NCBI GenBank assembly: GCA_013298665.1
Contig: JAAFIK010000020.1
Span: 9,635 to 73,634, forward strand
Direction: 5' to 3'
DNA length: 64,000 nt
From: Chitinophagales bacterium
Lineage (GTDB): Bacteria; Bacteroidota; Bacteroidia; Chitinophagales; Chitinophagaceae
Part shown: positions 14,720 to 64,000 of the stretch, one piece after another
Position numbering within the stretch: the stretch's first letter is position 1
Layout of the letters: each line of letters opens with the position of its first letter
Position numbers and translations under genes: made by a program
The notes under the pieces: generated by a model
What the model was told of the DNA's origin: nothing
The model's database searches: none
The model's input: only the letters and a program-made list of their open reading frames with translations

Positions 14720-15561
14720 TTGTTTGTGTTTGTTGATTCATTGTCGCTTGCTGAGCAGGGCTATACGGGTAACGGGCTGTGTCATACAGGGGAAAGGGAA
14801 ACTTTATATACTGGCGGTGTATGGTATGTTTCAGTACATCGGGTCAGGGGATTGCAGGATTAGCGATATTGGGGGCTTGTCAAAAACAGGGTGGTGGGCT
14901 TAACCCTGCATTGGGGTTACCGGAAAAGGTCAAAACGTGCATTCGGATGAAAGCGGTCATCAAAAGTATAAAAATTATCATGATTTATTTCGTTTTCCGC
15001 AAAACAATTACATAGAATTTATCCGGATAGAACCTTCTCCGCAATGCCATCGTTGATTTCACTTGCCGGTACAGCAGCATACAGCAATCAAGCCTGTTTG
15101 TCATGGAAGGGTAATAAAAAGAAGGGGCTATCGATTTCGTAAAAACCGAAATGGATTTTAGTAGTTTCCTGCTTGTGTGCTTCCGGGGTAAAAATTACTT
15201 TCGCTCTGTCAATATTTCCAGGCTGACAAGTAATGTACACACGATGCAACCGATGATGCACATGTCTTTGACCTGGTCTCTTTACACCTGTAGCATCCTG
15301 AATAAGCATAGTACGGTTTAACCCCGAATTTTGCAGCCAACAACAAAATCCGGGCTAACAGGTTGGCGCGGCTGACCTTTCTTCAGTATTGCCTGTATAG
15401 TCGTCTGAAAATTGTCATTTGCCAGGTTGATTGTTACCTGCTGCAGCGATAGCTGTACGTACTATTTATGAAAACGGTTGGCCACTCACGTGCATCACCT
15501 TCATCCGGGCCTATTGGTGGTGCCCGGTGCCATGCCCGGGTCTTCACTCATCCATTGTATT

Positions 15562-18500
15562 ATGAATCTTGTAACAGTACTTGAACAAACCATGAGTTCT
15601 TCGCAGAAGGGCATTGTCTTCCTGCAGGGTGCAGAAGGGCAGGTGCGTTTGCCGTATGCCGGACTCTGGTCGGCTGCGTTGCGTGTGCTGGGCAGTTTAC
15701 AGGCGAAGGGCTTGCGTGCCGGTGATGAGCTGGTGATCCAGACGGATGATCAGCTTCAGTTTGTCGTATTGTTCTGGGCGGGTATCATGGGGGGGATGAT
15801 TCCTGTACCCTTATCCACCGGCACACAGGAGGAACAAAAGCGGAAACTGTTCAGGGTCTGGCGGCTGCTCGGTAATCCATTCCTTGCCTGCGATGCAGAA
15901 CAGTACCAGCGTATTGCCGTACGTGCCGATGATGCGGAAAAAAATATCCATACCCGGCACCTCGCTATAGCAGAACTCATGGCAGGAGAGACCATGGGTG
16001 TATTGGCAACGATCGCGGATACAGATACGGCCTATATCCAGTTTTCATCAGGCTCTACGGGTGAACCCAAAGGTGTTTGCCTGACGCACAGGAATCTCCT
16101 GACCAATATCTATGATATTATTGAGGGACTTGGCATCACCAGGGCCGACACCCTCTTCAACTGGATGCCGCTTACGCATGATATGGGACTGATCGGGTTT
16201 CACCTGACGGGAATTGCAATGGCTATTGATGCAGTGAGTATGCCTACTGCGCTATTTATCCGAAGGCCACTGTTGTGGATGGAAGCGGTGGCAGCGGAGC
16301 AAGCGACTGTTTTATATTCTCCCAATTTTGGCCTGCAATATTTTCTGTCTGCCTTGCAGCGGCATACAGCCTTCCGGGCTGACCTGTCTGCTGTGCGCAT
16401 TATTGTGAATGGAGCCGAACCCATTGTGGTTGACCTCTGTCACAACTTTATCGCCAGTCTGAGGCCGTATGGCTTGCGTGAAAATGCAATCCTTTCTGCT
16501 TATGGTCTTGCAGAAGCGGCCGTGGCCGTGTCGGCCATGCCCCCGGGTAGTCCGCTGCTTTCTTATGTGCTTGACCGGCGATCCCTCAATACCGGCAACC
16601 CGGTGGTGCTGGTGGAAGACGATAGCCCGGTAGCCGTTCGTTTTGCGGATGCCGGTTTCCCGATGCGGCATTGCGGGTTGCGGGTTTGTGGTGATGATGA
16701 CGTGGTACTGCCACCGGGAACCATTGGCCATTTGCAGATTAAAGGGGAAAATGTAACGGCGGGGTACTACCGGCAGGAAGCGGCTACGCAGCAATTGTTT
16801 ACCGGAGACGGCTGGCTGCGTACGGGTGACCTTGGTTTTATCAGGGATGGCCGGCTGGTTGTGACGGGCAGACATAAAAACCTCATCATCCTTAACGGAC
16901 AAAACTACTACCCCCAGGATATTGAGGGCGTGGTGATTGCGGGCGGACTTGCTGAACAGGGAAGGGTTGTAGCCTGTGGTAACAGGGACAAGGATACAGG
17001 GCTTGAGGTACTACTGCTTTTTGTGTTGTACAAAGGGGATGCTCTTCGTTTTGCACCCACGGCAAATGCCATTGCTGCAAGGGTATTGGAGCAGGTGGGT
17101 ATTCCGGTTGCTGCTGTGGTGCCGGTTGCACGCATTCCCAAAACCACCAGTGGTAAAGTACAGTATTTTGCCTTGCTGGAACAGTACCGGAATACAATAA
17201 ACCTGCAAGGCATGCATGGAGCTGACAGTCCGGAAGCCTGGGGAAACATTGACTGGGATAACCCGCTTGCTGTCGAAACTTGTTTGCTGACATTCGTACA
17301 AACATTGCCGGGTAGTCCTGATAAGACTGCCAGTCTTACTGCGGCAGGGATGAACAGTTTATCGGCTATGCAGCTTGCTGATCGTTTGACAAGGTTTTCG
17401 GGTAAGGCCATTGCAGCAGAGTTGTTGTTCTCCAGTGCAGATATTACTGCGCTGAGCAGGCATATTGCGCTTGCCGGAAAGGGAAAACCGATATTGCCAT
17501 TGCCTGATGAAAGCGGTAAGGCAGCAAAACACCCCTCGCTTGCACAAATACGCATGTTTGCAGAATATACGATCGACAGCAGCTCAGCTGCGTATCATAT
17601 TCCACTGGTATTCCGTACAAACGGACACTTAGATAAAGGGGTATTGGAAAAAGCCATCAATATACTGGTGCAGCGCTATGAAACCCTGCGGATGGCTTTC
17701 CGGGCAACGGCCACCGGTACTGAAGTGACTGTGCTGGCTGTTCCGGATGCGCCATTCCTGCTTCAATACCATGATCTCCGCTTATCGGCCAACAGGGAAG
17801 CTGAAGAGACAGCGGTCATCCGTGCATTGGTATCCACTCCCTTTGAACTGGAAAAGGCATTGGTATTGCGCGGAGCCATACTACAGGGCAGAGAGTCCGA
17901 ACAGGTATTGGTCGTTGTTTTTCACCACATCTGTACCGATGGCTGGTCGCTGCAAATCTTTTTTCGCGAACTGGCACTGTTGTATGATGGCCTGCTGCAT
18001 CACCCTGAAGCGGTATTGCCTGAAGCGCCCCAAAGGATTTCCTATACACAGTATGCGGCCTGGCAACAGCGGCTGCTTGATACTGGTGTACTGGAAAAAA
18101 GCAGGCAGTACTGGCTTGGTCTATTGAAAGATTGCCCGGCACCGGTTGATTTCAGCGGTCAGCCGGCCGCCGGTATGTACACAGGTGCTGTACCAACAGA
18201 CCGCTATTGCTGTACACTTGATGAAAATGCTGTTGGGACTGTAAAAGCACTGGCTGCAAAATACCGGGTCTCTGTCTTCAGCGTAATCCTCGCAATGCTG
18301 AATACCCTGTTGTACCGTTATACCAACCGGAAGGATATCGTGATTGGTTTTGATACCGCCGGTCGTGTGCCGGAAACGATCGGGCAGGTGTTTGGGTATA
18401 CGCTGAATACGCTTTGTCTGCGGGCGGCACCTGATGGACAAATGACATTCAATGCACTGTTGCAGCAGGTACACGGGCAACTGATGGCTGCACTCGATCA

Positions 18501-21500
18501 CCAGTTGTATCCTTTTGAAAAACTGCTGGAAGAGATGACTGGTGACAGTCCTGAACCGCGCCGGCCTTTGTTTGGTGTAATGGTATTGCTGCAAAATTTT
18601 ATGGATGCGGATGCGCCGTTGTTGCTGGGTGATGCCGTGCTGACAAGAACGCGTGCCGCAACCCCGCACGGGTTTACAGATTTGTTGCTTGAGTTTGAAG
18701 AAAGCCGGGGTTGCTACCTGTTCAGCATTACCTGTAATACCCGCCGGTACACAGCGGAAGGTATTGCACTTCTGGCCAGTCATTTCAGGCACCTGCTGGC
18801 AGCGGTTTCGGAAAATGATGGTCTTTTCATCAGCAGATACGATTTTCTTACACCTGAGGAAAAACAAATCCACCGCAATTTTAACCATCACCCTTTTACT
18901 GCCCGTCGCCTGCGGCTGCCTGTACACGTTTTGTTTGAAAAGCAGGTGGTACTCCACCCTGAGGCGGTTGCGGTTTATGCGGGAGATGTTTTTCTTACGT
19001 ATCGCGAACTCAACGAACGTTGTAACCGTATTGCCCATCACCTGCGTACGGAGTTGCCCGTCAGTCCGGATACCTGTATTGCTTTCCGGACGGGCAGGAA
19101 TGAAAATATACTTGTAGCCATGCTTGCCATCCTCAAAACGGGTGCTGCTTTTCTGGCAATGGATGAAGAATGGCCGGTTGACCGCTGTGCGCAGGTGGTG
19201 AACGACAGCAAGAGCCTGGCATTACTGGTGGATAGCGAAACCCATCCGGCATTGCAGGATAGTGTTGCGGCTGCATTGCTGGTGGATATTGACGATGTTG
19301 TTTGCTGGTCGGGCAGGACAGACAATCCGGTTTATACGGGTGCTATTGAAAACCTGGCTTATCTCATTTATACTTCCGGCACAACGGGTCGTCCCAAGGG
19401 CATCATGATTGAGCAGGGTACGCTCACCGACTATGTCCAGTATTTTATCCATTACTTCGGCATAACCGCACGCGACGTGGTGATGCAACAGGCTTCCGTA
19501 GCTTTTGATACTTTTATTGAGGAAATCTTTCCGGCGATTTGTGCCGGGGGACGGGTAGTGATCGCCAGGGCAGGAGGGCGTGATATCCCCGCGCTGCTTG
19601 CACTCATCAAACAACACGCGGTAAGTATTCTTTCCACTACGCCATTGGTACTGAATGAGATCAATTACCAGTACGACAGCCGGATATCAACGCTTCGCCT
19701 CATCATCAGCGGGGGGGATGTGCTGCAGCCGCAATATGTTGATCAGCTTTTTCAGAATGTTTCGCTGTACAATACCTATGGCCCCTCAGAAACAACTGTA
19801 TGTGCCACCTTTCACCAGATTACCGCACTGGAGAACGCCGGGGTCATTGGTAAGCCGGTGGGTAATGGTGAGGTATGGATACTTGATGAACACCTGCAAC
19901 CACTGCCCTTCGGGGTACCGGGTGAATTGTATATCGGGGGCGGACTGGCGAGGGGATACTTCGGACAACCGGAACTGACTGCGAGGCATTTTATTCCGCA
20001 TCCTTTTGCACCGGGCAGACGATTGTACCGCTCAGGGGATATGGCTAAGCTGACGTATGCCGGTGAACTTGTATTTGCCGGCAGGGCAGACGACCAGGTG
20101 AAGATCCGCGGGCACCGGGTAGAATTACAGGAGGTGGAGAACTGTCTGCTGCAATACCCTGGTATCATTCAGGCTGCAGCAGTGCCGGAACCGGCAACAG
20201 CCCGGCTCACCGGATTTGTTGTTGCGCAGACCCGTATTGCTGCAACAGCCCTGCACGAGTTTATGCACCTGCACCTGCCATATTATATGGTGCCTGTCCG
20301 TTTTATTTTTCTTGCTGCACTACCGCTTACCGGTAACGGAAAGCTGGATAAAAAGCAATTGCTTGAACGGGCGCTGCTGCCCGATCCGCAGGAGCCGGGG
20401 CTGTCTGTACCCCTGCAGCCGCTGGAAGCCGGTTTGCTGGATATTGCCCGGGTTATTCTGCAAAGCCCGGCCATGCATGCCGGGGATCATTTTTTTGCAC
20501 ATGGCTGCACTTCAGTAAAAGCAGCTTCTTTCTGTTCGGCGATACAAAAACAACTCGGTTGCCAGGCCACTATACGGGATGTTTTCCTGTACCCAACGGT
20601 ATTGCGTCTTGCCGCCATTGTAAAAACACAACAGCCGCATCAGCCTGCACCGCTCCTCCTCACCGAAACGATGGATGATTATCCATTGTCGCCTGCGCAG
20701 AGCCGTTTATGGTTGCTGGCGCAATTGCAAAAGGAATCATTTGCTTACCATGAAGCGGAATGGTTTGTGCTGACCGGGGCACTGAACCCGGACTGGGTAA
20801 AAGAGGTGTTTGGGGCAATTGTGCGTAAATATGAAGTCTTCAGAACGCAGTTTGTACAGCGTGAAGGTATTCCGAGACAGATCGTCAGGGAACACGATGC
20901 TTGTCCATTAGCATTCACCTGTACTGATGTCAGCACCGCTGCGGCACCGGTGGAGGAGGCCAAAGCTATCCTGGACGAGGCACTGAAACAACCTTTCCGC
21001 CTGGATGAATATCCTTTGTACCGGATCGTACTTGTTAAAGTAGAGACCGGGCAATATTGGTTCTCATTGGTGATGCACCATATTGTTACGGACGATTGGT
21101 CTGCGCGGATTATCCTTGCTGACTTTTTTCAATACTACCATAAACTGAAGCAGGGGCAACCATTACTGGTGAGTGTACCATTGATACAATACAGGCATTA
21201 TGCTGCAGCTCAATCTGCAGCGCCTGTTGAACGGGAAGGGGACAGGCTGTACTGGCAAGACCTTTTTTCAGGCAGTCTGCCTGTGCTGGATTTGTATCCC
21301 GACCGGCCAAGACCTGTCGTCAAACACTATGCCGGCGGGGTTAAATATGCTTCATTTGATACTGCAACCGCCGGCGCGGTACAGGCGTTTTGCCAGGCGC
21401 AGGAAGTCAGCCTTTTTATGTTCCTGCTGTCGGGGGTTTATGTATTGCTGAACCGGTATTCCGGGCAGCAGGATATCGTTATAGGTGTACCGGTATCAGA

Positions 21501-27390: not shown

Positions 27391-27561
27391 ATGACAGCAC
27401 AACACATCTTATCCGTTATCAAAACGGCAGAAGCCGCGGGTATTGCTTTCTTTGTTGAAGACGGGGTACTCCGTATCCGCAAATCAAAAGGGGTTGTGCT
27501 CAGTGAGGCATTACTCCGGGAAGTACAGGCATACAAGCAGGAGATACTGACCCACCTGTCT
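27391..27561 (+). other. TubC-N-like beta-hairpin docking domain at the NRPS-2 N-terminus
   Basis: HILSVIKTAEAAGIAFFVEDGVLRIRKSKGVVLSEALLREVQAYKQEILTHLSG precedes the first C domain. The pattern matches the TubC N-terminal docking fold: helix, beta-hairpin (L-R-I/V-R/K), helix. Confidence 0.7.
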
Positions 27562-54600: not shown

Positions 54601-57600
54601 GCCGTCTTTGCCCGCCCGGTGTACCCGGAGAGTTGTATGTTGGCGGTGCAGGTCTCGCCAGGGGATACTGGAAACAGCCGGAGCTCACCGGTGAAAGGTT
54701 TACCGAAATTGCGCCCTTCGGGCGTTTATACCGGACCGGCGATATGGCATATGCCCGGCCGGATGGCAACCTCATTTTTCTTGGCAGGGACGATGAACAG
54801 GTAAAGATCCGGGGTTACCGCGTTGAACCCGGAGAAGTTGAGCGCCTCCTGGAAGAAGCACCGGGTATCCGGCAGGGCGTTGTGGTGGTGGCACGCGACA
54901 CGGCAGGTATAAAATGCCTCGTGGCTTATGTCATTCCGGGTGATGATTATGAAAGCGGGGCTGTAACCGGTTACCTGAAAGCACGGTTGCCGGAGTATAT
55001 GGTACCACAGGCGGTTGTTCCGGCGGAGCAATTGCCATTAACGGGCAATGGTAAGGTTGACCGTAAGGCTTTGGCCGCCCAACCCTTACCCGATGGTACG
55101 CATAGTGAAGCCACAGGATATATTGCACCCGCTACGTCAACCGAAGCCATACTGGCAGCGTTATGGGAAACCCTGCTCAGTAAGAAAAGGATCGGTACCC
55201 GGGATGATTTTTTTGCGCTCGGGGGGCATTCCATCATGGCCATGCGCCTGGCATCCGATATCCATAAAACCCTGCTCAAAGAACTGCCCATACGGGATAT
55301 ATTTGAACACCCCACGATTGCGGAACTGGCAGCAATACTGGAAAATATTTTACCCGATGCGGTTCCCTTACTGCCCTGCCGGGAAGAGGGGATTAACATA
55401 CCGCTTTCATTTTCCCAGGAACGCCTCTGGTTTATCGACCAGTTGCAGGGCTCCGTTCAATACCATATGTCATGGCTGTTCCGGCTGAAAGGTACCCTTA
55501 ACGTTGCAGCGCTGGAAGCTGCCTTTACAACCATTGTACAAAGGCATAGCGTGCTGCGTACTGTTGTACAGGAAATGGATGGCATCGGTTACCAGCAGGT
55601 TAATCCGGCGGCTGACTGGAAGATGGTGTATATAACGGTACCGGATATCATCGCCGGCAACACCACCGTAGAGGAGTACATCCGGGAGCGGGTACAAACA
55701 CCTTTCAACCTCGCCGCCGATCCCATGCTCAAAGTGACCATGATACAGGTAGCTGCAGATGAACATATCCTCTCCACCCTGTTTCACCATATTGCTTTTG
55801 ACGGTTGGTCCATCAGTATTATGGTTGATGAACTGGTGCAGCTTTACCACAGTTTTGTTGCAGGACAGCCGGATAAACTGACGCCCCTGCCTGTGCAATA
55901 TGCCGACTATGCCATCTGGCAGCGCGAGCACCTTTCCGGCAGCCGGCTCAACGCCAAGCTGGCCTACTGGAAAAATAAGCTGTCGGGTCTCCAGCCGCTC
56001 AACCTGCCCACAGATTATGTGCGCCCGCCTGTGCAGAGTACAAAGGGGCAAAGCATAAAATTTGTTATTGAACCCGCATTGACGGCACGTCTTGAACAAT
56101 GGGCGCAGGTACACGGCGCAACGCCCTTTATGGCCCTGCTCACGGCTTTTAAAATACTGTTGTACCGTTATACCGGTCAGCCGGATATTGCTGTAGGCAC
56201 ACCCGCTGCCAATCGTTTGCAACCTGCGGCTGCACCACTGATCGGCTTTTTTGTCAATACCCTTGTGCTCCGGGATTGTATTGACGGGGAAAGCGATGCA
56301 TGTACACTTCTGCAGCAGGTGAAAACAACCGCGCTCGAAGCCTATGCCGAACAGGATACGCCGTTCGAGAAAGTGGTGGAAGCCGTAGCTGTGGAAAGGA
56401 ATATGGACAATTCCCCGCTTTTTCAGGTGTTTTTCGCCCTGCAGAACATTCCTGAAGTAAAACCACTCAGCTTTGCCGGTGTTGAACTGTCGGTTATACC
56501 CGCAGCAACCGAAACGGCCAAGTTTGACCTGTATTTTGATTTTACACAGACACCCGAAGGCCTGCATACGCTTGTACAGTTTTGTACAGACCTGTTCAGT
56601 CCCGATACCATCAGCAGGATGTTTATGCACTTCAGGCAATTACTGGTATCCATGCTTGACCAGCCTGCGCAGAAGATCAGCCGCCTCAATATGCTGACCC
56701 CCGCAGAAGAGGCACAGTTGAATGATTTTAACAATACCGCACAGCCCTTTCCTGAAGGGGCAAGCATAACCGGTTGGTTTGAAGAACAGGTCAGGCAAAC
56801 ACCCGCCAGACCCGCGGTGGTGATGAACGGGGAGTCGCTCAGTTATACCGCATTAAACCGGCAGGCTAATATACTGGCAAACCGGCTTTTGTCAACCGGC
56901 GTGCAACCGGGTAGCCGGGTAATCGTTTGCACAGAGCGTTCCTTTGGAATGATTGCAGCCGTACTGGCTGTTCTTAAGGCGGGTGCCACCGTGGTGCCGG
57001 TAGATCCGGGATATCCTGCAGAACGGATTGCCTTTATGCTGCAGGATGCGGCTGCAACGGCCATACTCAGCAGCACCCGTTGCATGGGTATTGTACCCGC
57101 AACGGTCGGCCTGTCCCTGATCCTTGTTGATGAAAGCGGTAAGGATCATACGGATGCAGCACAGGAAAATCCGGCTATGGTTACCGATCCTGCAATACCC
57201 GTTTACCTCATTTATACTTCCGGGTCAACCGGCAAACCCAAGGGCGTATTACTGCCCCGGCAGGCCCTGCAGAACCTTTTGTACTGGCAGCACCGGTGCG
57301 GAGTGAACCGTCCGGGTGAAAGGATCCTCCAGTTTGCCAGCCTCAACTTTGATGTCAGCTTTCAGGAGATCGGCAGCGCCCTGTGTTTTGGACATACCCT
57401 TTGTCTCGTTGATGAAGACCTCCGGAAAGATATGCAGGAACTGACCAGCCTGATCAACCGGGAAGCGCTTACGCAATTGTTTATTCCTTATGTGGTACTG
57501 AAAAACCTGGCTGAATATGCCGGCCAGTCCGGTAGCTATCCCACTACTATCCGGGCCATATTTACTGCCGGCGAGCAGCTCCGTCTTACAGAAGATATCC

Positions 57601-58577
57601 GCCGGTTTGTACAACATTCCGGGCTGCGGCTATTCAACCAGTATGGCCCGTCAGAAGCGCATGTGGTGAGCGCCTATGAAGTACAGGATGCCGATTATGC
57701 CCTCCGGCCCTTACCCCCCATCGGCAAACCCATTGCCAATACACAGTTGTATATCGCAGATGCCGGCAAAACCATCTGCGGTATCGGCATCATTGGTGAG
57801 TTGTACATTGGTGGTGTGCAGGTAGCATCGGGGTATTTCAACCAGCCCGGTCTCACCGCCATAAAATTTATACCCGATCATTTCGGCAGGCAACCGGGTG
57901 CAAGGCTCTATTGTACAGGTGATAAAGCAAGATGGCTGCCCGATGGTACGATTGAATTTCTCGGTCGCCTGGATGACCAGGTGAAGATACGCGGCTACCG
58001 TGTTGAACCCGGTGAAATCGAATCTGTATTGCAGCAGATGCCCGGCATACTGCAGGCTATTGTACTGGCAAGCCGCGACCAGCGGGGTGATCCATTCCTC
58101 GCGGCTTATCTGCGTACGGATGCCAAACGCGATACGGATGCTGTATATGCCCATCTCAGGCAGAACCTGCCCGTGTATATGATCCCTGCTGCGGTGATCT
58201 ATATCGATGAAGTGCCATTGACCAGTAATGGAAAAGTGGACAAACAAAAGCTGCCGGGTATCGACATGAACCGCCTCAGCACACATCGCTATGCAGCACC
58301 CCGAAACGATACCGAAGCCAGACTGGTAGCCTTGTGGCAGGAACTGCTGGGTATTGCTGAAGTGGGTATACATGATGATTTCTTTGCATCGGGCGGACAT
58401 TCCCTGCTGGTAACCCGGATGCGTGCTGCACTGCGTAAATTATTCAGCCTTGACGTGTCTGTACGCGTTCTCTTCCAGCTTACCACACCCGAAGCCATCG
58501 CCGCTTATATCGACCTGCAGCGAGCAGCCGGTACCACTGCTCACGAGCCGGACAACTATGATACCATACAACTCTGA
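45627..58577 (+). CDS. NRPS-3: A-T-E-(internal dock)-C-A-T-C-A-T-C-A-T (4316 aa)
   Basis: Starts about 27 aa before an A domain, with no C domain. A cores MYTSGSTGKPKG (x2), IYTSGSTGLPKG and IYTSGSTGKPKG. T cores GGDSI, GGHSL, GGHSI and GGHSL. E motif HHLVVDGVSW. C motifs HHILVDGWS (preceded by LSPLQAGMLFH, DCL-type) and HHIAFDGWS (x2). Confidence 0.95.
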   Translation: MDNLESTTMTGQQSAGDNGSIATLSPGGQSLVQIFTRQVQQHPAAVALLMGKEKMTYQELDQRSNQVAHGLRLQGVRPGDAIGLLSERGTAMVVSLWGILKAGGIYVPLSTSYPAERLQYMVRDAGVTCIVHTAESLLDQLGLPDHGLTLDEYDCRFYPVTPVEDATTAAAGAYIMYTSGSTGKPKGILVTHANIVQLVFDPGPIRILPGDRVLQWSDYAFDGSVYDMFGSLLNGACLCLVRGNTSDVYALGRLIAEQEVSLAFFTTALLNNFADACPEALRDMRKVLFGGEEASVAHVRNILEVLGPGKLVHVYGPTETTVFATAYAVNTIEAEQYIPIGKPLKDARILLLGADGHPVSAGSPGEICIGGGGVSAGYLRNETLTAEKFVHRNGARYYHSGDLAREDEAGNLIFMGRIDGQIKLRGYRIEPGEIEALLLQCPGVQQAVVLLHTTGETHKKLAGFLVTGNGYDKAAMLDVVQGQLPAWMIPAVWMELPHIPLTPNGKTDRAALIHLLSAPDKEQETADTRSVAEEVFTQIWQDTLGIRRVGITDNFFDLGGDSIISIQVVSRARKAGYNLSPKDIFEYPTIRALAAYWQSEDRPGPGEREQGLLTGLCGLLPVQHWYFEQGLARHSHFNQAVLLGIGKPVTQDQLQQIYTRLTDHHDALRFVFTPQNGGWEQVYGNPELRLQVIDMEAVAAGDFAATLLAHSNSIQESLCIETGELFRMVLFNTPAFEQQNRLLLVIHHLVVDGVSWRILIEDIERLLDNPAAALPPKTASCRDWQEALLYYARQKTVQEEAHYWAETIATAERLPTDYTYETPLVQDDMQQYCIRLSAASTKALLQDIPALFHTGINDILLTALGISVCAFAGTSQVVIGLEGHGRESIAGDIDLSRTVGWFTSLYPLRLEVQDKNPVEVLKHTKEQLRRVPGRGMGYMVLKYLQRLPGLQGPDCWDLLFNYLGQLDRVATGHGPLSVVQESAGQNTAAANKPICRLIINGMVTGEALLVQWQYSTRHYAADTIASVAATFQEVLETLVRDCRHQQPVFTPADYGLGDSVDYRELDDFLGVDTPASTSITREDTDAASIRMFIDNLAAQDFFLVVEKENLILRTKKGKPPGGQRVKPASSIVNYIKTHKAALMQHLSGTETAVQQKPRKKVTGICKLSPLQAGMLFHGLYEQHTLAYIEQFCCRCSNLDPVLFSRGWHILVVQHSILRTAFYANTFNIPVQCVQENVVLPITIIDYRQLDKAKQEQAIAAYKSADQQQPFDFEQAPLMRIGLLRLSEQEWHMVWTYHHILVDGWSMQLLMQSFLTIYEALVSGEALPQVKEDRYEDYIRYIERQDKAKEEAFWRGYMAGMDTATLLPFIHSLADRNKTVETFSAEYLVLDEAQSVQLQSWAQQQRVTMNTVLQGVWAILLHHYTGNNHIAYGITVSGRPADLKNVEEKIGIYSNLNPLHSCWRAEQDIAGWLQDMQLQQLLSREFQYSSVNDIQRWTGIMGDWFDSILTFENYPLSRMLASRQWSLSIEATEKYERTTNYPMSVRVVPGTNTQVQFIYKSSLLPQASAAQIARHFREVLLGMITGKATTVGSLQLMGDIERQSLLDTFSAGDTVPVPTGTSITGLFAEQVNATPDHPALVFENITITYKVLDDQAVCLAHHLINHGIDSGDMVPICMERSVHFIIAIFATLKAGAAYVPIDPAYPAERVAYMLKDTAAKLVLTDEGSRSLLPADLPVLLPAAVLTGTGGLPAPIHKHPEPHDLAYVIYTSGSTGLPKGVMIEHGNLLHSVWARKAYYGPAGAAFLVPSFAFDSSVAVIFGTLLSGGQLLFCREEWLKDTRYLETILPQTDMLLCVPSYYQFLLQERLLDNTRLQTVILAGEPLEPSLVRQHYTVSAAQLYNEYGPTEASVWATVSHVKKEDRQVTIGRPVPNLSLYILDAAGCPVPEGIPGEIYIGGPQVARGYLNQTILTGEKFVTIAADGHTPRRLYRTNDRARWLPNGEIMFLGRSDDQVKIRGYRVEPGEIEAVLHRAPGIQQAVVLAAENARGQQQLMAFVVCHEPPDRDGLQEYLRAYLPGYMVPGIVIRVNSIPLTANGKTDKKKLTAVYQSQVQQQQYTAPVNHTQERLAEMWQSILEQPKVGIHDDFFDLGGHSLSAMRLVAAIRRQWNIDLPLRTVFSHATIAQLAPLLRQQTVAADAALAKRPDNEPARLSFAQERLWFIHRLQGSTQYQLPWLFRLTGHLNIQAMQMAFTTILQRHEVLRTIIKAADGTGTPCLLEANRWGMDVQTGNGAPATDILSDIYQWLQLPVNLSQDYMLRARLVITGNSTYLLGLVVHHIAFDGWSVAVLVDEWMALYNSFSTQQAHALPEPLLQYADYAHWQRKQQNQSREKLLEYWAAHLAGVTPVDIPTDYLRPVRQSIAGAQVSLQLSPVLSNRLQQFAREENVTLFMVLLAAANVLLSRYSRQDDICIGTPVAGRQHTALEKMIGLFVNTLPMRNRLKAGQSFSDLLQQVKASTLSAYEHQELPFEQMVDVLGLARDPARHPVFQVVLSLHNMPAAANLQLHELDCTLLPVARTTTAFELDFDITLGDQGLRVVLTYCSELFAEPRMQHFLAHYVHLLERFAADPAIAVDLAPMWTSGEEMAGRLQLAVKAFPENGAGNVVQCFAAQVAQAPDAVALVFGDACWSYRRLDEESNQLAHYLCSIGIKEGTPVPLCIDRSATLIITILAILKAGGAYVPIDPAYPASRISYMLADIGMPLLLVDKAYPVLADIDDTVMQVLVDMQRDQLRTQPSAPVDIAVQPGTLAYIMYTSGSTGKPKGVMIEHQNIVSLVRSVNDMPLQPGDTLLATGSPSFDATTFEYWGTLLNGARLVMCSQETLLDTALLQAAIRRENVNKLWMTIGWFNQLVETVPEIFSTLNHIITGGDRLSAAHIAQLQKACPQLTIVSAYGPTENTTYSTTYVIPPVDGRAAIPLGWPVAYRGAFVLDRHGRLCPPGVPGELYVGGAGLARGYWKQPELTGERFTEIAPFGRLYRTGDMAYARPDGNLIFLGRDDEQVKIRGYRVEPGEVERLLEEAPGIRQGVVVVARDTAGIKCLVAYVIPGDDYESGAVTGYLKARLPEYMVPQAVVPAEQLPLTGNGKVDRKALAAQPLPDGTHSEATGYIAPATSTEAILAALWETLLSKKRIGTRDDFFALGGHSIMAMRLASDIHKTLLKELPIRDIFEHPTIAELAAILENILPDAVPLLPCREEGINIPLSFSQERLWFIDQLQGSVQYHMSWLFRLKGTLNVAALEAAFTTIVQRHSVLRTVVQEMDGIGYQQVNPAADWKMVYITVPDIIAGNTTVEEYIRERVQTPFNLAADPMLKVTMIQVAADEHILSTLFHHIAFDGWSISIMVDELVQLYHSFVAGQPDKLTPLPVQYADYAIWQREHLSGSRLNAKLAYWKNKLSGLQPLNLPTDYVRPPVQSTKGQSIKFVIEPALTARLEQWAQVHGATPFMALLTAFKILLYRYTGQPDIAVGTPAANRLQPAAAPLIGFFVNTLVLRDCIDGESDACTLLQQVKTTALEAYAEQDTPFEKVVEAVAVERNMDNSPLFQVFFALQNIPEVKPLSFAGVELSVIPAATETAKFDLYFDFTQTPEGLHTLVQFCTDLFSPDTISRMFMHFRQLLVSMLDQPAQKISRLNMLTPAEEAQLNDFNNTAQPFPEGASITGWFEEQVRQTPARPAVVMNGESLSYTALNRQANILANRLLSTGVQPGSRVIVCTERSFGMIAAVLAVLKAGATVVPVDPGYPAERIAFMLQDAAATAILSSTRCMGIVPATVGLSLILVDESGKDHTDAAQENPAMVTDPAIPVYLIYTSGSTGKPKGVLLPRQALQNLLYWQHRCGVNRPGERILQFASLNFDVSFQEIGSALCFGHTLCLVDEDLRKDMQELTSLINREALTQLFIPYVVLKNLAEYAGQSGSYPTTIRAIFTAGEQLRLTEDIRRFVQHSGLRLFNQYGPSEAHVVSAYEVQDADYALRPLPPIGKPIANTQLYIADAGKTICGIGIIGELYIGGVQVASGYFNQPGLTAIKFIPDHFGRQPGARLYCTGDKARWLPDGTIEFLGRLDDQVKIRGYRVEPGEIESVLQQMPGILQAIVLASRDQRGDPFLAAYLRTDAKRDTDAVYAHLRQNLPVYMIPAAVIYIDEVPLTSNGKVDKQKLPGIDMNRLSTHRYAAPRNDTEARLVALWQELLGIAEVGIHDDFFASGGHSLLVTRMRAALRKLFSLDVSVRVLFQLTTPEAIAAYIDLQRAAGTTAHEPDNYDTIQL
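45700..48830 (+). other. C-less A-T-E tridomain at the N-terminus of NRPS-3 (approximate bounds)
   Basis: A domain with hand-extracted code DGYFLGVVFK (Ile-like), T core FFDLGGDSIISIQVVSR, and E domain with HHLVVDGVSWRIL. No C domain between the start codon and the A domain. Confidence 0.85.
48885..49071 (+). other. TubC-N-like docking domain embedded internally in NRPS-3, between the E domain and a DCL-type C domain
   Basis: ASIRMFIDNLAAQDFFLVVEKENLILRTKKGKPPGGQRVKPASSIVNYIKTHKAALMQHLSG aligns by eye with the N-terminal docks of NRPS-2 (...GIAFFVEDGVLRIRKSKG...YKQEILTHLSG) and NRPS-4. Confidence 0.65.
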
Positions 58578-58613
58578 TGCTGTTTCTTTTTTATCCATTT
58601 AATCTGATCAATC

Positions 58614-58799
58614 ATGTCTGATTTTGATTTAGCCGAAGTTATTGGCCTTTTGCAAAAGGCCGAAGCGCTTGACGTCAGGCTTTCCTGCGAAAAGGATGAA
58701 CTTGTGGTGAAGGTCAATCGCGAAAAAAGACCCGATGCACAATTCCTTGATGCCTTGCGAAACCATAAGGTACACCTGCTGGAATACTTCAGGCAATAT
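58614..58799 (+). other. TubC-N-like docking domain at the NRPS-4 N-terminus
   Basis: LAEVIGLLQKAEALDVRLSCEKDELVVKVNREKRPDAQFLDALRNHKVHLLEYF precedes the first C domain. Confidence 0.65.
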
Positions 58800-61700
58800 G
58801 CACAGACCAAACTCAATACCAGTGAAGTAAATATCCCCCTGCTGCAACCGGGTACGGTTGTTCCGCTTTCCTTTGCGCAGGAGCGTTTGTGGTTTATGCA
58901 CGGTATGCAGGGCGACCTGCCTTACCGGCTGCACTGGCTTTTTGAGCTGAACGGTCAACCCGATATTGCGCTGCTGGAGAATGCTTTCCGCCTGGTGATG
59001 GATCGCCACGAGGTATTGCGTACGACGATCCGGGAGAAGGGTGGTGTTGGTTTTGCACAGCTTCTTGCTGCGCAGGACTGGCAATTGCATACGGTATCCG
59101 CTGCATCCCTTGCCCGCCTGGGTTACCGCACGGGTATGGACTATATCCATCACCTGTCTGGTATTCCCTTCGACCTCACCTGCGACTATATGTTGCGGGT
59201 AACCCTTGTGGAGACGGGCCCATCGGGCTGGTTGCTGTCAGCCCTTGTTCACCATATTGCCTTTGATGGCTGGTCTATCGGGATCATGGTGCGTGAGCTT
59301 GTAGAGTGTTACAACAGCCTTATGGCCGGCCGTGCGCCTTTATTATCCCCATTACCGATCCGGTACAGCGACTATGCGGCCTGGCAGCGGGATTACCTGC
59401 AGGGTGCGGTGGCTGCTGATAAACTGGCCTACTGGTGCAACCAGCTCAGTGGGGTGTCTGCTTCAGCCCTGCCCGCCGATTATGCACGCCCTGCCCGGCA
59501 AAGCGGCCGTGGTGGCGCGGTCCGTCACCTGCTTGATCCGGCATTGCAGCAGTTGCTGCAGCAGTATGCGCGTAGTGAAGGCGTTACCCTGTTTATGCTG
59601 CTGCTGGCTGCTTTTAAAGTACTGCTGTACCGCTACAGCCGCCAGGAAGACATCTGTGTGGGTACACCGATTGCCGGCCGGCAGCAACAGGAAACAGAAG
59701 GGCTGATCGGCTTTTTCATCAATACCCTTGCCCTTCGCAGCAGGGTAGACCCGCAGCAATCTTTTGCTGTTTTTTTACAACAGGTCAAACAATGCACATT
59801 GTCTGCTTACGAGCACCAGGACCTGCCCTTTGAGAAGATCGTACAGGCGCTGGGTATCGAACGCGATCCGGGGAGGAGCCCTTTGTTCCAGGTGGTCTTT
59901 GCACTGCACAATACACCCGAGTCTGCCCCCTTACAACTGGGCAGCCTTGCCCTTCAGCCGGTAGATAGCGGTGAGATTACGGTACAGTACGACCTTGACC
60001 TTAATGCGACCGGGACGGCTGAGGGCATTGTACTGGTGATGACCTATTGCAGCGACCTGTACAAAGGTGCAACGGTTGTCCGGTTGCTGGAACATTATGA
60101 ACAATTGCTTCGTTCAGCCCTTGCAGCAAGCGATACAGAAGTGGCTGCGTTGCCATGGGTGAGTGCGGCAGAACAGCAACTGCTTGCGGCCTGGAATGAT
60201 ACCGGTGTTGCTTATCCGGTAACGGCGACGGTTACGGATCTTTTTGCCGCACAGGTGCAGCACCACCCGATGAGTACTGCACTGGTGATGGGGGAAGAGC
60301 GTATGTGTTACCGGGAGCTGGATGCGGCGGGTAACCGTTTGGCCAACTACCTTATACAGGCAGGAGTTGTTCCCGGCACTGCCATTGGTTTACTGTCGCA
60401 CCGGGGTATGGGCATGCTGGTGGGTATCTGGGGCATCCTGAAGGCTGGTGGTATCTATGTTCCGCTCAATATGGATTATCCGGCCAGCCGTCTGCAGCAT
60501 ATCGCCACCGATGCTGCTGTTCGCTTTATTGTGCATGGTGAGGATTGCGATCCTGCTGATTACGGGTTGGGTGATCATGGTGTGCTGGTGGAGGTTACCG
60601 CCGGTGAGTACTATCCCGATACGCTGCCTTTGGTGAAGACCGCTGCCGGTGATGGGGTGTATATCATGTACACTTCCGGTACCACGGGTAAGCCCAAGGG
60701 TATACTGGTTACCCATACCAATATCATCAAACTGGTGAGCGATCCCGGTGCGATCCGCATATTCCCCGATGATCATGTACTGCAATGGTCGAACTATGCC
60801 TTTGATGGTTCGGTGTACGACATTTTTGGTGCGCTGCTCAATGGGGCCTGTCTGCACCTGATTGGTGATATTGCTGCCGATGTGTATGCGCTGGGTAAGC
60901 AGATTGAAGCAGAAAAGATCAGCATCAGTTTTTTTACCACGGCACTGTTCAACAGTTTTGCTGATGCCTGTCCCGGCAGCCTTGCCGGTATGCGCCGGAT
61001 ATTGGTGGGCGGGGAGCAGTTGTCCGCCCCGCATGTGCGCAGGGTGTTTGACCTGCTTGGTCCCGGCCGTATTGTGAATGGATATGGTCCTACCGAAACA
61101 ACGGTTTTTGCCACCTGTCATGTTTTTGATGTATTGGAAGAAGGTGCTGTACCCATTGGCAAACCGCTGGGCAATACGCGTGTGTTATTGCTTGATGGGC
61201 AGGGTAATCCCGTGCCCATCGGCGTTGAGGGAGAGTTGTATATAGGCGGGGCTGGTGTTGCTGCGGGTTATGTGAACAATGAGGCGCTTAGCCTTACGAA
61301 ATTTGTCAATATAGACGGCGCGCGTTATTACCGCAGTGGCGATATTGTACGCTGGAATGATAAGGGGGAGTTGCTGTTTACGGGCAGGATGGACGGACAG
61401 GTGAAGCTTCGTGGTTACCGCATTGAATTGGGTGAGATAGAAGCGGTACTGTTGCGCAGCGGTGGTGTTCGGCAGGCTGTGGTGCTGCTGCATACCGATG
61501 AGCAGGAGAACAAACGTTTGGCGGCGTTTGTGGTAACGGACAGTAGTTATGATAGTTTTCTTACCCAGGCACTGCTTCGGGCGTCTTTACCGGAGTATAT
61601 GGTACCGGGTATATGTATGGTAGTACCGGCGCTGCCGCTGACCGGCAACGGTAAGGTAGATCACCGTGCATTGCTGTCGGGGATCCGTCCGGGTACTGTG

Positions 61701-64000
61701 GTACAGGAGCGTGCGGCACCCCGTACGGAAACGGAGAAGGCATTGGCGGTTATCTGGGAGGAGTTACTGGATATAGCGGCGGTGGGTATCCATGATGATT
61801 TTTTTGACCTTGGTGGTCACTCCCTGCTCGCTGTGCGTGTACTGTCGGCGATCCGCAGCAGTTTTGGTAAGGAGCTTGCCATCCGCGATATGTTCGATAC
61901 GCCAACGATTGCCGGTCTTGCCGCGCTGATCAGCAATGAAGATACTGCTGCAGAGGCGCGGCCATCCATCCGCCCCGGGCAGCGACCGGATAGGGTTCCG
62001 CTTTCCTTTGCGCAGGAGCGTTTGTGGTTTATGCACGGTATGCAGGGCGACCTGCCTTACCGGCTGCACTGGCTTTTTGAGCTGAACGGTCAACCCGATA
62101 TTGCGCTGCTGGAGAATGCTTTCCGCCTGGTGATGGATCGCCACGAGGTATTGCGTACGACGATCCGGGAGAAGGGTGGTGTTGGTTTTGCACAGCTTCT
62201 TGCTGCGCAGGACTGGCAATTGCATACGGTATCCGCTGCATCCCTTGCCCGCCTGGGTTACCGCACGGGTATGGACTATATCCATCACCTGTCTGGTATT
62301 CCCTTCGACCTCACCTGCGACTATATGTTGCGGGTAACCCTTGTGGAGACGGGCCCATCGGGCTGGTTGCTGTCAGCCCTTGTTCACCATATTGCCTTTG
62401 ATGGCTGGTCTATCGGGATCATGGTGCGTGAGCTTGTAGAGTGTTACAACAGCCTTATGGCCGGCCGTGCGCCTTTATTATCCCCATTACCGATCCGGTA
62501 CAGCGACTATGCGGCCTGGCAGCGGGATTACCTGCAGGGTGCGGTGGCTGCTGATAAACTGGCCTACTGGTGCAACCAGCTCAGTGGGGTGTCTGCTTCA
62601 GCCCTGCCCGCCGATTATGCACGCCCTGCCCGGCAAAGCGGCCGTGGTGGCGCGGTCCGTCACCTGCTTGATCCGGCATTGCAGCAGTTGCTGCAGCAGT
62701 ATGCGCGTAGTGAAGGCGTTACCCTGTTTATGCTGCTGCTGGCTGCTTTTAAAGTACTGCTGTACCGCTACAGCCGCCAGGAAGACATCTGTGTGGGTAC
62801 ACCGATTGCCGGCCGGCAGCAACAGGAAACAGAAGGGCTGATCGGCTTTTTCATCAATACCCTTGCCCTTCGCAGCAGGGTAGACCCGCAGCAATCTTTT
62901 GCTGTTTTTTTACAACAGGTCAAACAATGCACATTGTCTGCTTACGAGCACCAGGACCTGCCCTTTGAGAAGATCGTACAGGCGCTGGGTATCGAACGCG
63001 ATCCGGGGAGGAGCCCTTTGTTCCAGGTGGTCTTTGCACTGCACAATACACCCGAGTCTGCCCCCTTACAACTGGGCAGCCTTGCCCTTCAGCCGGTAGA
63101 TAGCGGTGAGATTACGGTACAGTACGACCTTGACCTTAATGCGACCGGGACGGCTGAGGGCATTGTACTGGTGATGACCTATTGCAGCGACCTGTACAAA
63201 GGTGCAACGGTTGTCCGGTTGCTGGAACATTATGAACAATTGCTTCGTTCAGCCCTTGCAGCAAGCGATACAGAAGTGGCTGCGTTGCCATGGGTGAGTG
63301 CGGCAGAACAGCAACTGCTTGCGGCCTGGAATGATACCGGTGTTGCTTATCCGGTAACGGCGACGGTTACGGATCTTTTTGCCGCACAGGTGCAGCACCA
63401 CCCGATGAGTACTGCACTGGTGATGGGGGAAGAGCGTATGTGTTACCGGGAGCTGGATGCGGCGGGTAACCGTTTGGCCAACTACCTTATACAGGCAGGA
63501 GTTGTTCCCGGCACTGCCATTGGTTTACTGTCGCACCGGGGTATGGGCATGCTGGTGGGTATCTGGGGCATCCTGAAGGCTGGTGGTATCTATGTTCCGC
63601 TCAATATGGATTATCCGGCCAGCCGTCTGCAGCATATCGCCACCGATGCTGCTGTTCGCTTTATTGTGCATGGTGAGGATTGCGATCCTGCTGATTACGG
63701 GTTGGGTGATCATGGTGTGCTGGTGGAGGTTACCGCCGGTGAGTACTATCCCGATACGCTGCCTTTGGTGAAGACCGCTGCCGGTGATGGGGTGTATATC
63801 ATGTACACTTCCGGTACCACGGGTAAGCCCAAGGGTATACTGGTTACCCATACCAATATCATCAAACTGGTGAGCGATCCCGGTGCGATCCGCATATTCC
63901 CCGATGATCATGTACTGCAATGGTCGAACTATGCCTTTGATGGTTCGGTGTACGACATTTTTGGTGCGCTGCTCAATGGGGCCTGTCTGCACCTGATTGG
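58614..64000 (+). CDS. NRPS-4 (3' partial): dock-C-A-T-C-A...
   Basis: Absent from the ORF track because no stop occurs before the window end. ATG at 58614 opens MSDFDLAEVIGLLQKAEALDVRLSCEKDELVVKVNREKRPDAQFLDALRNHKVHLLEYF..., followed by LSFAQERLWF, HHIAFDGWS, MYTSGTTGKPKG, GNGKVDHRAL and FFDLGGHSLLAVRV, then the same C-A sequence again. The frame is open to base 64000. Confidence 0.9.
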   Translation, partial: MSDFDLAEVIGLLQKAEALDVRLSCEKDELVVKVNREKRPDAQFLDALRNHKVHLLEYFRQYAQTKLNTSEVNIPLLQPGTVVPLSFAQERLWFMHGMQGDLPYRLHWLFELNGQPDIALLENAFRLVMDRHEVLRTTIREKGGVGFAQLLAAQDWQLHTVSAASLARLGYRTGMDYIHHLSGIPFDLTCDYMLRVTLVETGPSGWLLSALVHHIAFDGWSIGIMVRELVECYNSLMAGRAPLLSPLPIRYSDYAAWQRDYLQGAVAADKLAYWCNQLSGVSASALPADYARPARQSGRGGAVRHLLDPALQQLLQQYARSEGVTLFMLLLAAFKVLLYRYSRQEDICVGTPIAGRQQQETEGLIGFFINTLALRSRVDPQQSFAVFLQQVKQCTLSAYEHQDLPFEKIVQALGIERDPGRSPLFQVVFALHNTPESAPLQLGSLALQPVDSGEITVQYDLDLNATGTAEGIVLVMTYCSDLYKGATVVRLLEHYEQLLRSALAASDTEVAALPWVSAAEQQLLAAWNDTGVAYPVTATVTDLFAAQVQHHPMSTALVMGEERMCYRELDAAGNRLANYLIQAGVVPGTAIGLLSHRGMGMLVGIWGILKAGGIYVPLNMDYPASRLQHIATDAAVRFIVHGEDCDPADYGLGDHGVLVEVTAGEYYPDTLPLVKTAAGDGVYIMYTSGTTGKPKGILVTHTNIIKLVSDPGAIRIFPDDHVLQWSNYAFDGSVYDIFGALLNGACLHLIGDIAADVYALGKQIEAEKISISFFTTALFNSFADACPGSLAGMRRILVGGEQLSAPHVRRVFDLLGPGRIVNGYGPTETTVFATCHVFDVLEEGAVPIGKPLGNTRVLLLDGQGNPVPIGVEGELYIGGAGVAAGYVNNEALSLTKFVNIDGARYYRSGDIVRWNDKGELLFTGRMDGQVKLRGYRIELGEIEAVLLRSGGVRQAVVLLHTDEQENKRLAAFVVTDSSYDSFLTQALLRASLPEYMVPGICMVVPALPLTGNGKVDHRALLSGIRPGTVVQERAAPRTETEKALAVIWEELLDIAAVGIHDDFFDLGGHSLLAVRVLSAIRSSFGKELAIRDMFDTPTIAGLAALISNEDTAAEARPSIRPGQRPDRVPLSFAQERLWFMHGMQGDLPYRLHWLFELNGQPDIALLENAFRLVMDRHEVLRTTIREKGGVGFAQLLAAQDWQLHTVSAASLARLGYRTGMDYIHHLSGIPFDLTCDYMLRVTLVETGPSGWLLSALVHHIAFDGWSIGIMVRELVECYNSLMAGRAPLLSPLPIRYSDYAAWQRDYLQGAVAADKLAYWCNQLSGVSASALPADYARPARQSGRGGAVRHLLDPALQQLLQQYARSEGVTLFMLLLAAFKVLLYRYSRQEDICVGTPIAGRQQQETEGLIGFFINTLALRSRVDPQQSFAVFLQQVKQCTLSAYEHQDLPFEKIVQALGIERDPGRSPLFQVVFALHNTPESAPLQLGSLALQPVDSGEITVQYDLDLNATGTAEGIVLVMTYCSDLYKGATVVRLLEHYEQLLRSALAASDTEVAALPWVSAAEQQLLAAWNDTGVAYPVTATVTDLFAAQVQHHPMSTALVMGEERMCYRELDAAGNRLANYLIQAGVVPGTAIGLLSHRGMGMLVGIWGILKAGGIYVPLNMDYPASRLQHIATDAAVRFIVHGEDCDPADYGLGDHGVLVEVTAGEYYPDTLPLVKTAAGDGVYIMYTSGTTGKPKGILVTHTNIIKLVSDPGAIRIFPDDHVLQWSNYAFDGSVYDIFGALLNGACLHLI
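58860..61994 (+). repeat. Tandem module duplication, copy 1 (complete C-A-T module, 3135 bp = 1045 codons)
   Basis: Sequence from 58860 onward is reproduced from 61995 onward at a constant offset of 3135 bp. I saw no mismatch in the lines compared. Shadow ORFs are amino-acid identical (58894..59106 = 62029..62241, 59332..59706 = 62467..62841, 59463..59759 = 62598..62894, 59764..59964 = 62899..63099). Confidence 0.9.
61995..64000 (+). repeat. Tandem module duplication, copy 2 (truncated by the window end)
   Basis: Matches 58860..60865. The left breakpoint falls at the T-C linker, immediately before VPLSFAQERLWF. Confidence 0.9.

Follow-up and report, generated by a model that had tools for sequence, protein, structure and literature searches.

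Organisation of the locus

The stretch of DNA analysed here (hereafter the window) comprises 64,000 nucleotides of the Chitinophagales bacterium assembly GCA_013298665.1 (contig JAAFIK010000020.1, positions 9,635 to 73,634, forward strand) and carries a nonribosomal peptide synthetase (NRPS) cluster headed by a fatty acyl-AMP ligase (FAAL). Four NRPS genes, here called N1 to N4 and all read in one direction, were identified, with an exporter gene and a hydroxylase gene between N1 and N2 (Table 1). An original prediction, made from the letters of the same window, had described a FAAL-primed lipopeptide line with a SyrD-like ABC exporter and a CmlA-like β-hydroxylase, truncated at the window edge; the six reading frames were recovered, and the domain identities support the proposed class. 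Domains were mapped with hidden Markov models (HMMs) built on the cluster's own domains, every copy being placed on N1 to N4. This map returned exactly the tally proposed earlier: one FAAL, one acyl carrier protein (ACP), eleven carrier (T) domains, eleven condensation (C) domains, thirteen adenylation (A) domains, three epimerisation (E) domains, one methyltransferase (MT) and three docking domains (dd), with no thioesterase (TE). Neither a release domain of another kind (reductase, R, or terminal C) nor a type II TE was found within the window. The line is indeed cut at the window edge, as the N4 frame, which opens with an ATG, is still open there.

The thirteen A domains do not match the eleven T and eleven C domains, a mismatch that was contained in the earlier tally without its consequence being drawn. 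In a collinear (type A) NRPS each elongation module has one C, one A and one T domain, and the later proteins start with a C domain. This does not hold here: N2 contains a C-A-A-T-E module, and N3 opens with an A-T-E module that has no C domain. The FAAL-primed lipopeptide line of the original prediction therefore stands, while its simple collinearity does not.

The ten-letter specificity codes of the A domains, previously extracted by hand, were reproduced letter for letter in a MAFFT alignment, both by eye and by script. The exception is N4-A2, which had been given the same code as N4-A1; it is cut at the window edge and only DGY can be read. The code of N3-A2, DSALIAEVWK, had been left unassigned, whereas it matches a published His code that has been reported for β-hydroxy-His as well (PMC12283262).

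Table 1. Features of the NRPS cluster, with positions in the window and codes of the adenylation domains
Feature	Position	Strand	Organisation and matches	Codes
N1	15478..23805	+	2775 aa; FAAL (~15631-17277)-ACP (~17320-17466)-C-A-T-C-A-T; acidic tail ...EAYEFIDL	A1 DTESIGTVCK (Lys-like); A2 DISQICMIFK
ABC exporter	23938..25581	+	547 aa; permease and ATPase fused, cyclic-peptide exporter type; ABC_tran, TIGR01194, PRK10522	
CmlA-type non-haem diiron β-hydroxylase	25637..27268	+	543 aa; CmlA_N and MBL fold	
N2	27391..45546	+	6051 aa; dd-C-A-T-C-A(MT)-T-C-A-T-E-C-A-A-T-E; N-terminal β-hairpin dd 27391-27576; A domains Gly, Ser/MT and Asp, then DCL-type C followed by Val-like and Gly; tail ...ETDDVMTF	A1 DILQLGLIWK (Gly); A2 DVWHLSLIDK (Ser); A3 DLTKIGHIGK (Asp); A4 DAYWIGGTFK (Val-like); A5 DILQLGLIWK (Gly)
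Embedded FkbM-type MT	~33700-34254	+	within the Ser A domain of N2; PF05050, TIGR01444	
Tandem A-A didomain	40804..43818	+	N2-A4 40804-42234, N2-A5 42388-43818; one shared T	DAYWIGGTFK; DILQLGLIWK
T-E repeat, N2 modules 3 and 4	37812..39374 and 43942-45503	+	97.8% DNA identity (1564 bp)	
N3	45627..58577	+	4316 aa; A-T-E-dd-C-A-T-C-A-T-C-A-T; 34-aa leader; first C DCL-type; tail ...DNYDTIQL	A1 DGYFLGVVFK (Ile-like); A2 DSALIAEVWK (His); A3 DAFWIGATYK (Val-like); A4 DVQFFAQVVK (Pro-like)
Internal β-hairpin (TubC_N-like) docking domain	48870..49076	+	N3 residues ~1082-1150, in the E1-to-C1 linker	
N4, truncated	58614..64000	+	at least 1795 aa; dd (58614-58811)-C-A-T-C-A(partial)	A1 DGYFLGGVFK (Ile/Val-type)
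N4 module 1/2 repeat	58860..60865 and 61995-64000	+	100% over 2006 bp, period 3135 bp	

A starter-type module and an internal docking domain in N3

The leader of N3 carries no C-A linker motif and passes directly into A-T-E, with no C domain ahead. This head module looks functional rather than decayed, judging from its intact A3, A5, A7, A8 and A10 motifs, its GGDSI-type T domain and its complete set of E motifs. The A domain of the head shares 56-62% identity with the N4-type A domains of this organism and of the closest relative described below, and the A-T-E unit is therefore not recent. A metagenome scan with the N3 head gave no match, and homologue searches with the N3 head and with the dd-C-A-T segment that follows it gave none above 47% identity among the matches listed.

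The linker between the E domain of this head (E1) and the first C domain of N3 (C1) measures 125 aa, compared with ~48 aa for the cis E-to-C linker in N2, which has no docking domain. Local alignments of N3 residues 1082-1150 to the N2 and N4 docking domains gave z values of 6.6-8.0, with none of 500 shuffles reaching the score, and a docking-domain HMM built without the N3 segment scored that segment at 14-16 bits. An AlphaFold2 (AF2) model of the same residues adopts an alpha-beta-beta-alpha-alpha fold (mean pLDDT 71, core 80-89). When this model was compared with the PDB by Foldseek, ranks 1-9 were all occupied by β-hairpin docking domains (Kj12A/B/C, AerJ, EpoB and the enacyloxin C domain), and ranks 1-4, which are stand-alone docking-domain entries, reached target-normalised TM-scores of 0.70-0.78. 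By predicted fold and by similarity the segment is thus classed as a β-hairpin (TubC_N-type) docking domain. Its place is exceptional, as it lies ~1080 residues into N3, whereas a survey of 86 other NRPS loci yielded 16 docking domains of this type, every one of them N-terminal.

The C-terminal tails of the synthetases share one pattern (...YEFIDL in N1, ...YDTIQL in N3 and ...DDVMTF in N2, with ...YDVIDL and ...YETIQL in the relative). Among the docking domains of the cluster, exactly three in number, only the internal copy in N3 is left without a partner, and three tails for three docking domains therefore suggest that the N2 tail pairs with it.

N2 and N3 are separated by 80 bp (45547-45626). 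A GC-rich hairpin, CCCGGCA-CAAA-TGCCGGG, stands directly 3' of the N2 stop codon and was not called as a terminator by a consensus scan; a promoter and terminator scan of the gap found nothing above shuffled expectation. A search against Rfam returned no match.

Epimerisation domains and tandem adenylation domains in N2

All three E domains of the cluster carry the HHxxxDGVS, EGHGRE and FNYLGQ motifs and are preceded by T domains with the GGDSI signature; D-residues, which had been predicted earlier, are therefore expected in the product. The C domains that follow an E domain, N2-C4 and N3-C1, are both of the D-donor/L-acceptor (DCL) type, with an LSxLQxGMLFH N-terminus and HHxxxDGWS. The last domain of N2 is itself a genuine E domain (HHLVIDGVS, EGHGRE, FNYLGQ), with ~100% protein identity to the internal E domain of N2. 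Its assignment as the C domain of a C/A-T module split between N2 and N3 was considered and ruled out, as it is an E domain by every motif.

Just upstream, N2-A4 and N2-A5 follow each other at a spacing of ~50 residues, and each has intact A3, A5, A7, A8 and A10 motifs. N2-A5 keeps its own C-A-linker remnant, LTPEERTLLLHQFNDT, and looks like part of an A-T(-E) unit brought in by recombination downstream of a retained A domain. Such A-A pairs are rare; a survey of 86 other NRPS loci with 330 A domains found none, and a metagenome scan with the A4/A5 junction returned seven loci, none of which has an A-A didomain.

The N2/N3 junction in the closest relative

The closest relative identified is a contig of an uncultured Ferruginibacter metagenome-assembled genome (MAG), CAZPXP010000024.1, which was read outside positions 44101-53590. 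It has the same gene order and is collinear through N4, at ~60% identity overall and 55-83% for the individual proteins. When genome contigs were scanned with the N4 end as query, no genome exceeded 60% identity.

In this relative, the N2 orthologue (6265 aa, where ~5540 aa would be expected for canonical modules) ends at contig position 52956, and the WTYHH motif of the DCL-type C domain of the N3 orthologue (~3200 aa) is already found at position 53592. At most 211 codons lie between the two, enough to extend no further upstream than N3 residue 1082, where the internal docking domain begins. The N3 orthologue therefore has no room for the ~1080-aa A-T-E and would start at the docking domain. 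As far as these positions tell, N2(T-E) to dd-C is the arrangement in the closest relative, and in the window an A-T-E module appears fused ahead of that docking domain.

The N4 orthologue of the MAG measures 3473 aa and consists of three modules, ending in A-T-TE (TE: PF00975, 86 bits). Since it has three modules, the truncated N4 of the window probably continues with a third module and a TE, to end near ~69 kb. The last A domain of this orthologue (locus ~17000-18400) is highly divergent, with only 21-29% identity to other A domains; its code positions read SKTFVPETAS, with no Asp235, no Lys517 and no YGPTE motif. To judge from these residues, it may lack activity or may act on something other than an amino acid; the corresponding domain of the present cluster lies past the window edge.

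Initiation, tailoring and export

The N1 reading frame begins with TTG. Because the MAG orthologue (2751 aa) aligns from N1 residue 36 onwards, translation probably begins at the ATG at 15562. The best NCBIfam models for the N1 head are those of fatty acyl-AMP ligases, namely NF006624 (336 bits, cutoff 600) and the FadD32 and FadD28 models, all of them below their whole-protein cutoffs. Its PDB matches include the FAALs 3pbk and 3kxw as well as FadD32, FadD23 and FadD28. These matches identify the head as FAAL-like, and not as an amino-acid A domain or an acyl-CoA synthetase. A PP-binding domain follows at N1 residues 615-663 (25.9 bits, cutoff 20.8) with a GMNSL motif, and then a C domain at residues 686-1112 with the motif HHICTDGWS. 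The first T domain of N1 (20440-20610) is atypical in its core, which reads FFAHGCTSV where FFxLGGHSL would be expected, and has a low T-domain HMM score, as does its MAG orthologue; such a core could belong to a carrier domain specialised for a tailoring enzyme that acts in trans, for instance the conserved hydroxylase.

The MT of N2 interrupts the Ser-code A domain at a site between motifs a8 and a9, downstream of GRNDDQVKIRG and ahead of the A10 region. It belongs to the FkbM family (PF05050 at 6e-16; TIGR01444 at 77.5 bits, cutoff 37.7), and a PDB search with it found no relative. Its S-adenosylmethionine-binding motif, DVGANIG, fits DVGx(N/H)xG, the pattern of KtzH and ColG, two interrupted A domains of type II with O-methylating activity on Ser (PMC8341866). 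The combination of an a8-a9 insertion, this motif and a Ser code gives good support to the O-methyl-Ser candidate of the original prediction. In natural-product clusters nearly all FkbM-family enzymes are O-methyltransferases, while one is an N-methylating enzyme (PMC9259500); for this reason O-methylation of Ser is considered likely, though short of certain.

The predicted exporter matches ABC_tran and scores 265 bits against TIGR01194, a cyclic peptide exporter model, which is slightly below the cutoff of 286, and 296 bits against PRK10522; it is 83% identical to its MAG orthologue. The hydroxylase combines a CmlA_N domain (PF18456, 1.8e-89) with a metallo-β-lactamase (MBL) fold, and its PDB matches include 8a90 (473 bits) and CmlA itself (4jo0, 376 bits). 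In alignment with these entries its metal motif is conserved as HNHQDH, in agreement with HxHxDH. The MAG orthologue is 81% identical to it, a homologue from Chitinophaga oryziterrae 75%. Both proteins thus bear out the functions proposed for them earlier. Asp and His are the obvious candidates for β-hydroxylation, as predicted targets.

Proposed assembly line and its alternatives

There is no C domain between the T-E end of N2 and the A-T-E head of N3, and the first N3 residue therefore cannot be joined to the N2 chain by canonical logic. With a fused loading module and a module with two A domains, gene order is consequently not a simple predictor of the product. We lean towards one main line that runs N1-N2-N3-N4 with a bypass at the N2/N3 junction. 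The FAAL would adenylate a fatty acid and load it on the ACP, after which N1-C1 would acylate the first, Lys-like residue and N1 would add a second (code DISQICMIFK). N2 would add Gly, Ser (O-methylated by the embedded MT), Asp (epimerised to D) and a sixth residue, which could be picked by either of the tandem A domains (Val-like or Gly), loaded on their single T domain and epimerised by the terminal E domain. The acidic tail of N2 would then dock in trans on the docking domain inside N3, ahead of the DCL-type C domain, and the acyl-hexapeptidyl chain would be condensed with the second N3 residue, His. N3 would go on to add Val and a Pro-like residue, the Ile/Val-type modules of N4 would extend the chain further, and, by homology, a third N4 module and a TE would release an acyl-dodecapeptide. 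At least one T-bound residue would be β-hydroxylated by the CmlA-type enzyme, and the ABC transporter would export the product.

The product predicted in this way is acyl-(Lys-like)-X-Gly-OMe-Ser-D-Asp-D-Val/Gly-His-Val-(Pro-like)-Ile/Val-Ile/Val-X. The earlier estimate of 11-12 residues or more is thereby narrowed to a predicted twelve (2+4+3+3), with the first N3 module outside the lipopeptide. The A-T-E head of N3 would be a second entry to the same C domain, lacking a C domain of its own and unable to lengthen the lipopeptide; it would either start an unacylated heptapeptide (D-Ile-His-Val-...) or be idle. The steps of FAAL/ACP initiation, of the six N1 and N2 modules, of O-methylation, of epimerisation at positions 5 and 6 and of the D-specific C domain at the entry to N3 rest on domain identities. 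N3-C1 and N2-C4 are both DCL-type and so match D-configured donors, which supports the model.

Several points weigh against this bypass. The substrate predictions are based on the codes alone, and for DISQICMIFK and DVQFFAQVVK a literature search found no published assignment. The internal docking domain scores 12.5 bits with Pfam TubC_N, below the cutoff of 26, and its AF2 model, of moderate confidence, was built on an alignment of three sequences; binding of the N2 tail to it is a predicted pairing only. The tethered T1-E1 of N3 should have a kinetic edge over a donor that arrives in trans. The comparison with the relative takes in the N2 orthologue up to its last 2951 aa, and so stops short of the region that would hold the A-A didomain and the tail motif. 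Finally, the ~14 kb of the source contig beyond the window could hold another dd-C protein or a release enzyme.

In a bolder form, which we regard as doubtful, the cluster would be a branch-point line in which N3-C1 is served by two competing donors, the fused A-T-E starter and the acyl-hexapeptidyl T-E of N2 arriving through the internal docking domain. Such a line would make an acylated dodecapeptide together with a free heptapeptide that has the same six C-terminal residues, and the A-A didomain would vary position 6 between D-Val and Gly. If true, it would be a snapshot of how insertion of an A-T-E unit, gene fusion and gene conversion reshape an NRPS, and a natural template for the engineering of multi-entry synthetases.

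As an alternative, the locus may hold two separate, adjacent lines. N1 and N2 would then yield an acyl-hexapeptide, set free by hydrolysis or with the help of a trans-acting enzyme, while N3 and N4 would make an unacylated heptapeptide, begun by the A-T-E module and released by the TE of N4. N3 does open in the manner of GrsA and TycA, with its motifs intact, its T1 and E1 are tethered in cis to its C1, and by homology with the MAG proteins N3 and N4 form a complete line from start to TE. N2, however, has no TE, R or terminal C domain of its own and no type II TE accompanies it in the window; it retains a docking-type tail, for which the sole unpaired docking domain lies inside N3; and the N3 orthologue of the MAG has no starter module, so that there the chain must come from N2. 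We therefore hold two separate lines to be unlikely.

An assembly artefact, or decay of a non-functional cluster, was also weighed. Recombination between near-identical repeats within a metagenome-assembled contig could have produced the observed order, as the source is one single NCBI contig of 78,413 bp and two large internal repeats are present, one of 1564 bp at 97.8% identity (the T-E segments of N2 modules 3 and 4) and one of at least 2006 bp at 100% (N4 modules 1 and 2), the latter match running into the window edge. The MAG A domains that correspond to the N4 repeat are only 72% identical to each other, and the repeats are therefore ascribed to recent gene conversions or duplications in this lineage. 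The exact N4 repeat would collapse in a short-read assembly; either the contig is long-read based or the region needs verification. Against an artefact, the ~48 kb of NRPS reading frame are uninterrupted, all catalytic motifs are intact, the A4/A5 and E1/docking-domain junctions lie off the repeat boundaries, a two-copy direct repeat permits this linear order only, and the independent N2 orthologue of the MAG is over-long as well (6265 aa against ~5540 aa). We consider this explanation very improbable.

Least probable of all is a strictly collinear line in which every module, the first of N3 included, adds a residue to an acyl-peptide of at least 13 residues through a non-canonical condensation, carried out, for example, by the E domain that ends N2: the genes share one direction and are closely packed, with only the 80-bp gap between N2 and N3, and E domains belong to the C-domain superfamily, but the terminal domain of N2 has every E signature and is a near-exact copy of the internal one, no C domain precedes N3-A1, and the head module of N3 is absent from the MAG orthologue.

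Comparison with known systems

C-less A-T-E initiation modules are known from GrsA and TycA of the gramicidin S and tyrocidine synthetases, where they pass a D-aminoacyl thioester to a DCL-type C domain. The N3 head resembles them in being a C-less A-T-E ahead of such a C domain. It differs in being fused to an elongation synthetase through a retained docking domain, downstream of a synthetase that itself ends in T-E. A link to falcitidin-type acyl-tetrapeptides was rejected, as we take their His/Ile/Val/Pro order and the position of the D-residue not to match.

The docking domains share their predicted fold with the β-hairpin class that binds C-terminal short linear motifs (rhabdopeptide Kj12A-C, TubC, EpoB, AerJ and enacyloxin Bamb_5915). 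Those of N2 and N4 are also N-terminal, as in this class, and have upstream partner proteins with acidic C-terminal tails, whereas the N3 copy is internal, with an A-T-E tri-domain fused ahead of it.

Two consecutive A domains in one module have been reported for AulA of auriculamide biosynthesis, a four-domain starter enzyme in which the first A domain is dispensable (PMC5238615). In N2, by contrast, the pair sits in an elongation module, C-A-A-T-E, with both A domains intact and with differing codes (Val-like and Gly). By sequence, the interrupted Ser domain of N2, a putative O-methylating one, shares with KtzH and ColG the a8-a9 insertion, the DVGx(N/H)xG motif and the Ser code (PMC8341866).

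The chitinopeptins, named earlier as a possible point of comparison, are also products of Chitinophagaceae. Their clusters in Chitinophaga eiseniae and C. flava begin with a C-starter domain, that of C. niastensis with a polyketide synthase (PKS) module, and they contain sbnA/B for diaminopropionate (Dap) and an N-Me-Val module (PMC9248904). The present cluster resembles them as an NRPS lipo(depsi)peptide line of this family with embedded E domains, an ABC transporter and an MBL-fold CmlA-type β-hydroxylase. In both cases an S8 peptidase and a transcription factor lie nearby, here an S8 peptidase and a LuxR-type response regulator, and conservation of an S8 peptidase beside the chitinopeptin clusters has been described (PMC9248904). 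Unlike the chitinopeptin clusters, the present one starts with FAAL-ACP, and its sole MT is FkbM-type and sits in a Ser module. No sbnA/B-like gene was found among the flanking reading frames of the window. The chitinopeptin order NMeVal-Thr-... does not match the codes found here, and the Gly, His and Pro-like codes have no chitinopeptin counterpart. On the grounds of the FAAL-ACP head, the missing sbnA/B and N-Me-Val module and the residue order, membership in the chitinopeptin family was ruled out; the cluster is a loose relative only.

A family of related loci in Chitinophagaceae

The head cassette of the cluster was found in at least four other Chitinophagaceae loci, namely CAZPXP010000024.1 and CAZPXP010000035.1 (both from the same MAG), the JGI metagenome contig Ga0376084_0000133 and WRXO01000009.1 of Chitinophaga oryziterrae. 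In these loci an NRPS of FAAL-ACP-C-A-T-C-A-T organisation is likewise followed by an ABC exporter, a CmlA-type hydroxylase and a large NRPS. The head codes read DTESIG[TS]VCK and DISQIC[MLF]IFK, with Gly and Ser next in three of the four loci, and identities amount to 44-55% for the N1 orthologues and 75-81% for the hydroxylases. The loci differ in a type II thioesterase gene between exporter and hydroxylase, which three of the four relatives have and which neither the present cluster nor the MAG contig 24 has, and in the size of the downstream NRPS (6265 and 8304 aa). A literature search tied no family member to a compound and found no characterised match.

The cluster is thus an orphan member of a well-known class, unusual in its A-A didomain, its fused C-less module and its internal docking domain. 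A lipopeptide line in this soil-type Bacteroidota bacterium is unsurprising, since orphan NRPSs are numerous in Chitinophagaceae and several genomes share the head cassette. Few lipopeptides are known from the phylum, and this uncharacterised family, with its acyl-(Lys-like)-X head, CmlA-type hydroxylase and exporter, could be prioritised for isolation. The N2/N3 junction is available in two states, split and canonical in the MAG, and here with an A-T-E fused through a retained docking domain. The pair bears on module insertion in NRPSs and on the survival of docking domains in gene fusion, both of which matter for NRPS engineering, and the intact A-A didomain lends itself to testing whether a single carrier domain can be served by two A domains. 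As one more gene cluster the locus has modest value; it offers more as an example for the study of NRPS evolution and docking.

Flanking genes

The left part of the window begins with a gene for an 1844-aa protein (19-6683) with 12 PKD repeats, an IgGFc_binding-like domain and a CHU_C type IX secretion signal, followed by one for a PorP/SprF type IX secretion membrane protein. The large protein is probably unrelated to the NRPS cluster, and the presence of type IX secretion proteins supports a Bacteroidota origin of the window. On the minus strand at 6931-8604 lies a gene pair for a BlaR1-like M56 peptidase/sensor and a BlaI/Penicillinase_R-type repressor. Two tandem M57 "dual-action HEIGH" metallopeptidases and then the S8 subtilase, which has a type IX secretion system (T9SS) sorting tail, occupy 8788-10619 (minus strand) and 10764-13412 (plus strand). 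Positions 13624-13928, in the intergenic region that separates the S8 peptidase from the LuxR-type response regulator (14015-14719, minus strand), hold an 83-bp tandem repeat of 2.3 copies with 95% matches; behind it come two short and perfect tandem arrays, one of 14 bp and one of 12 bp.

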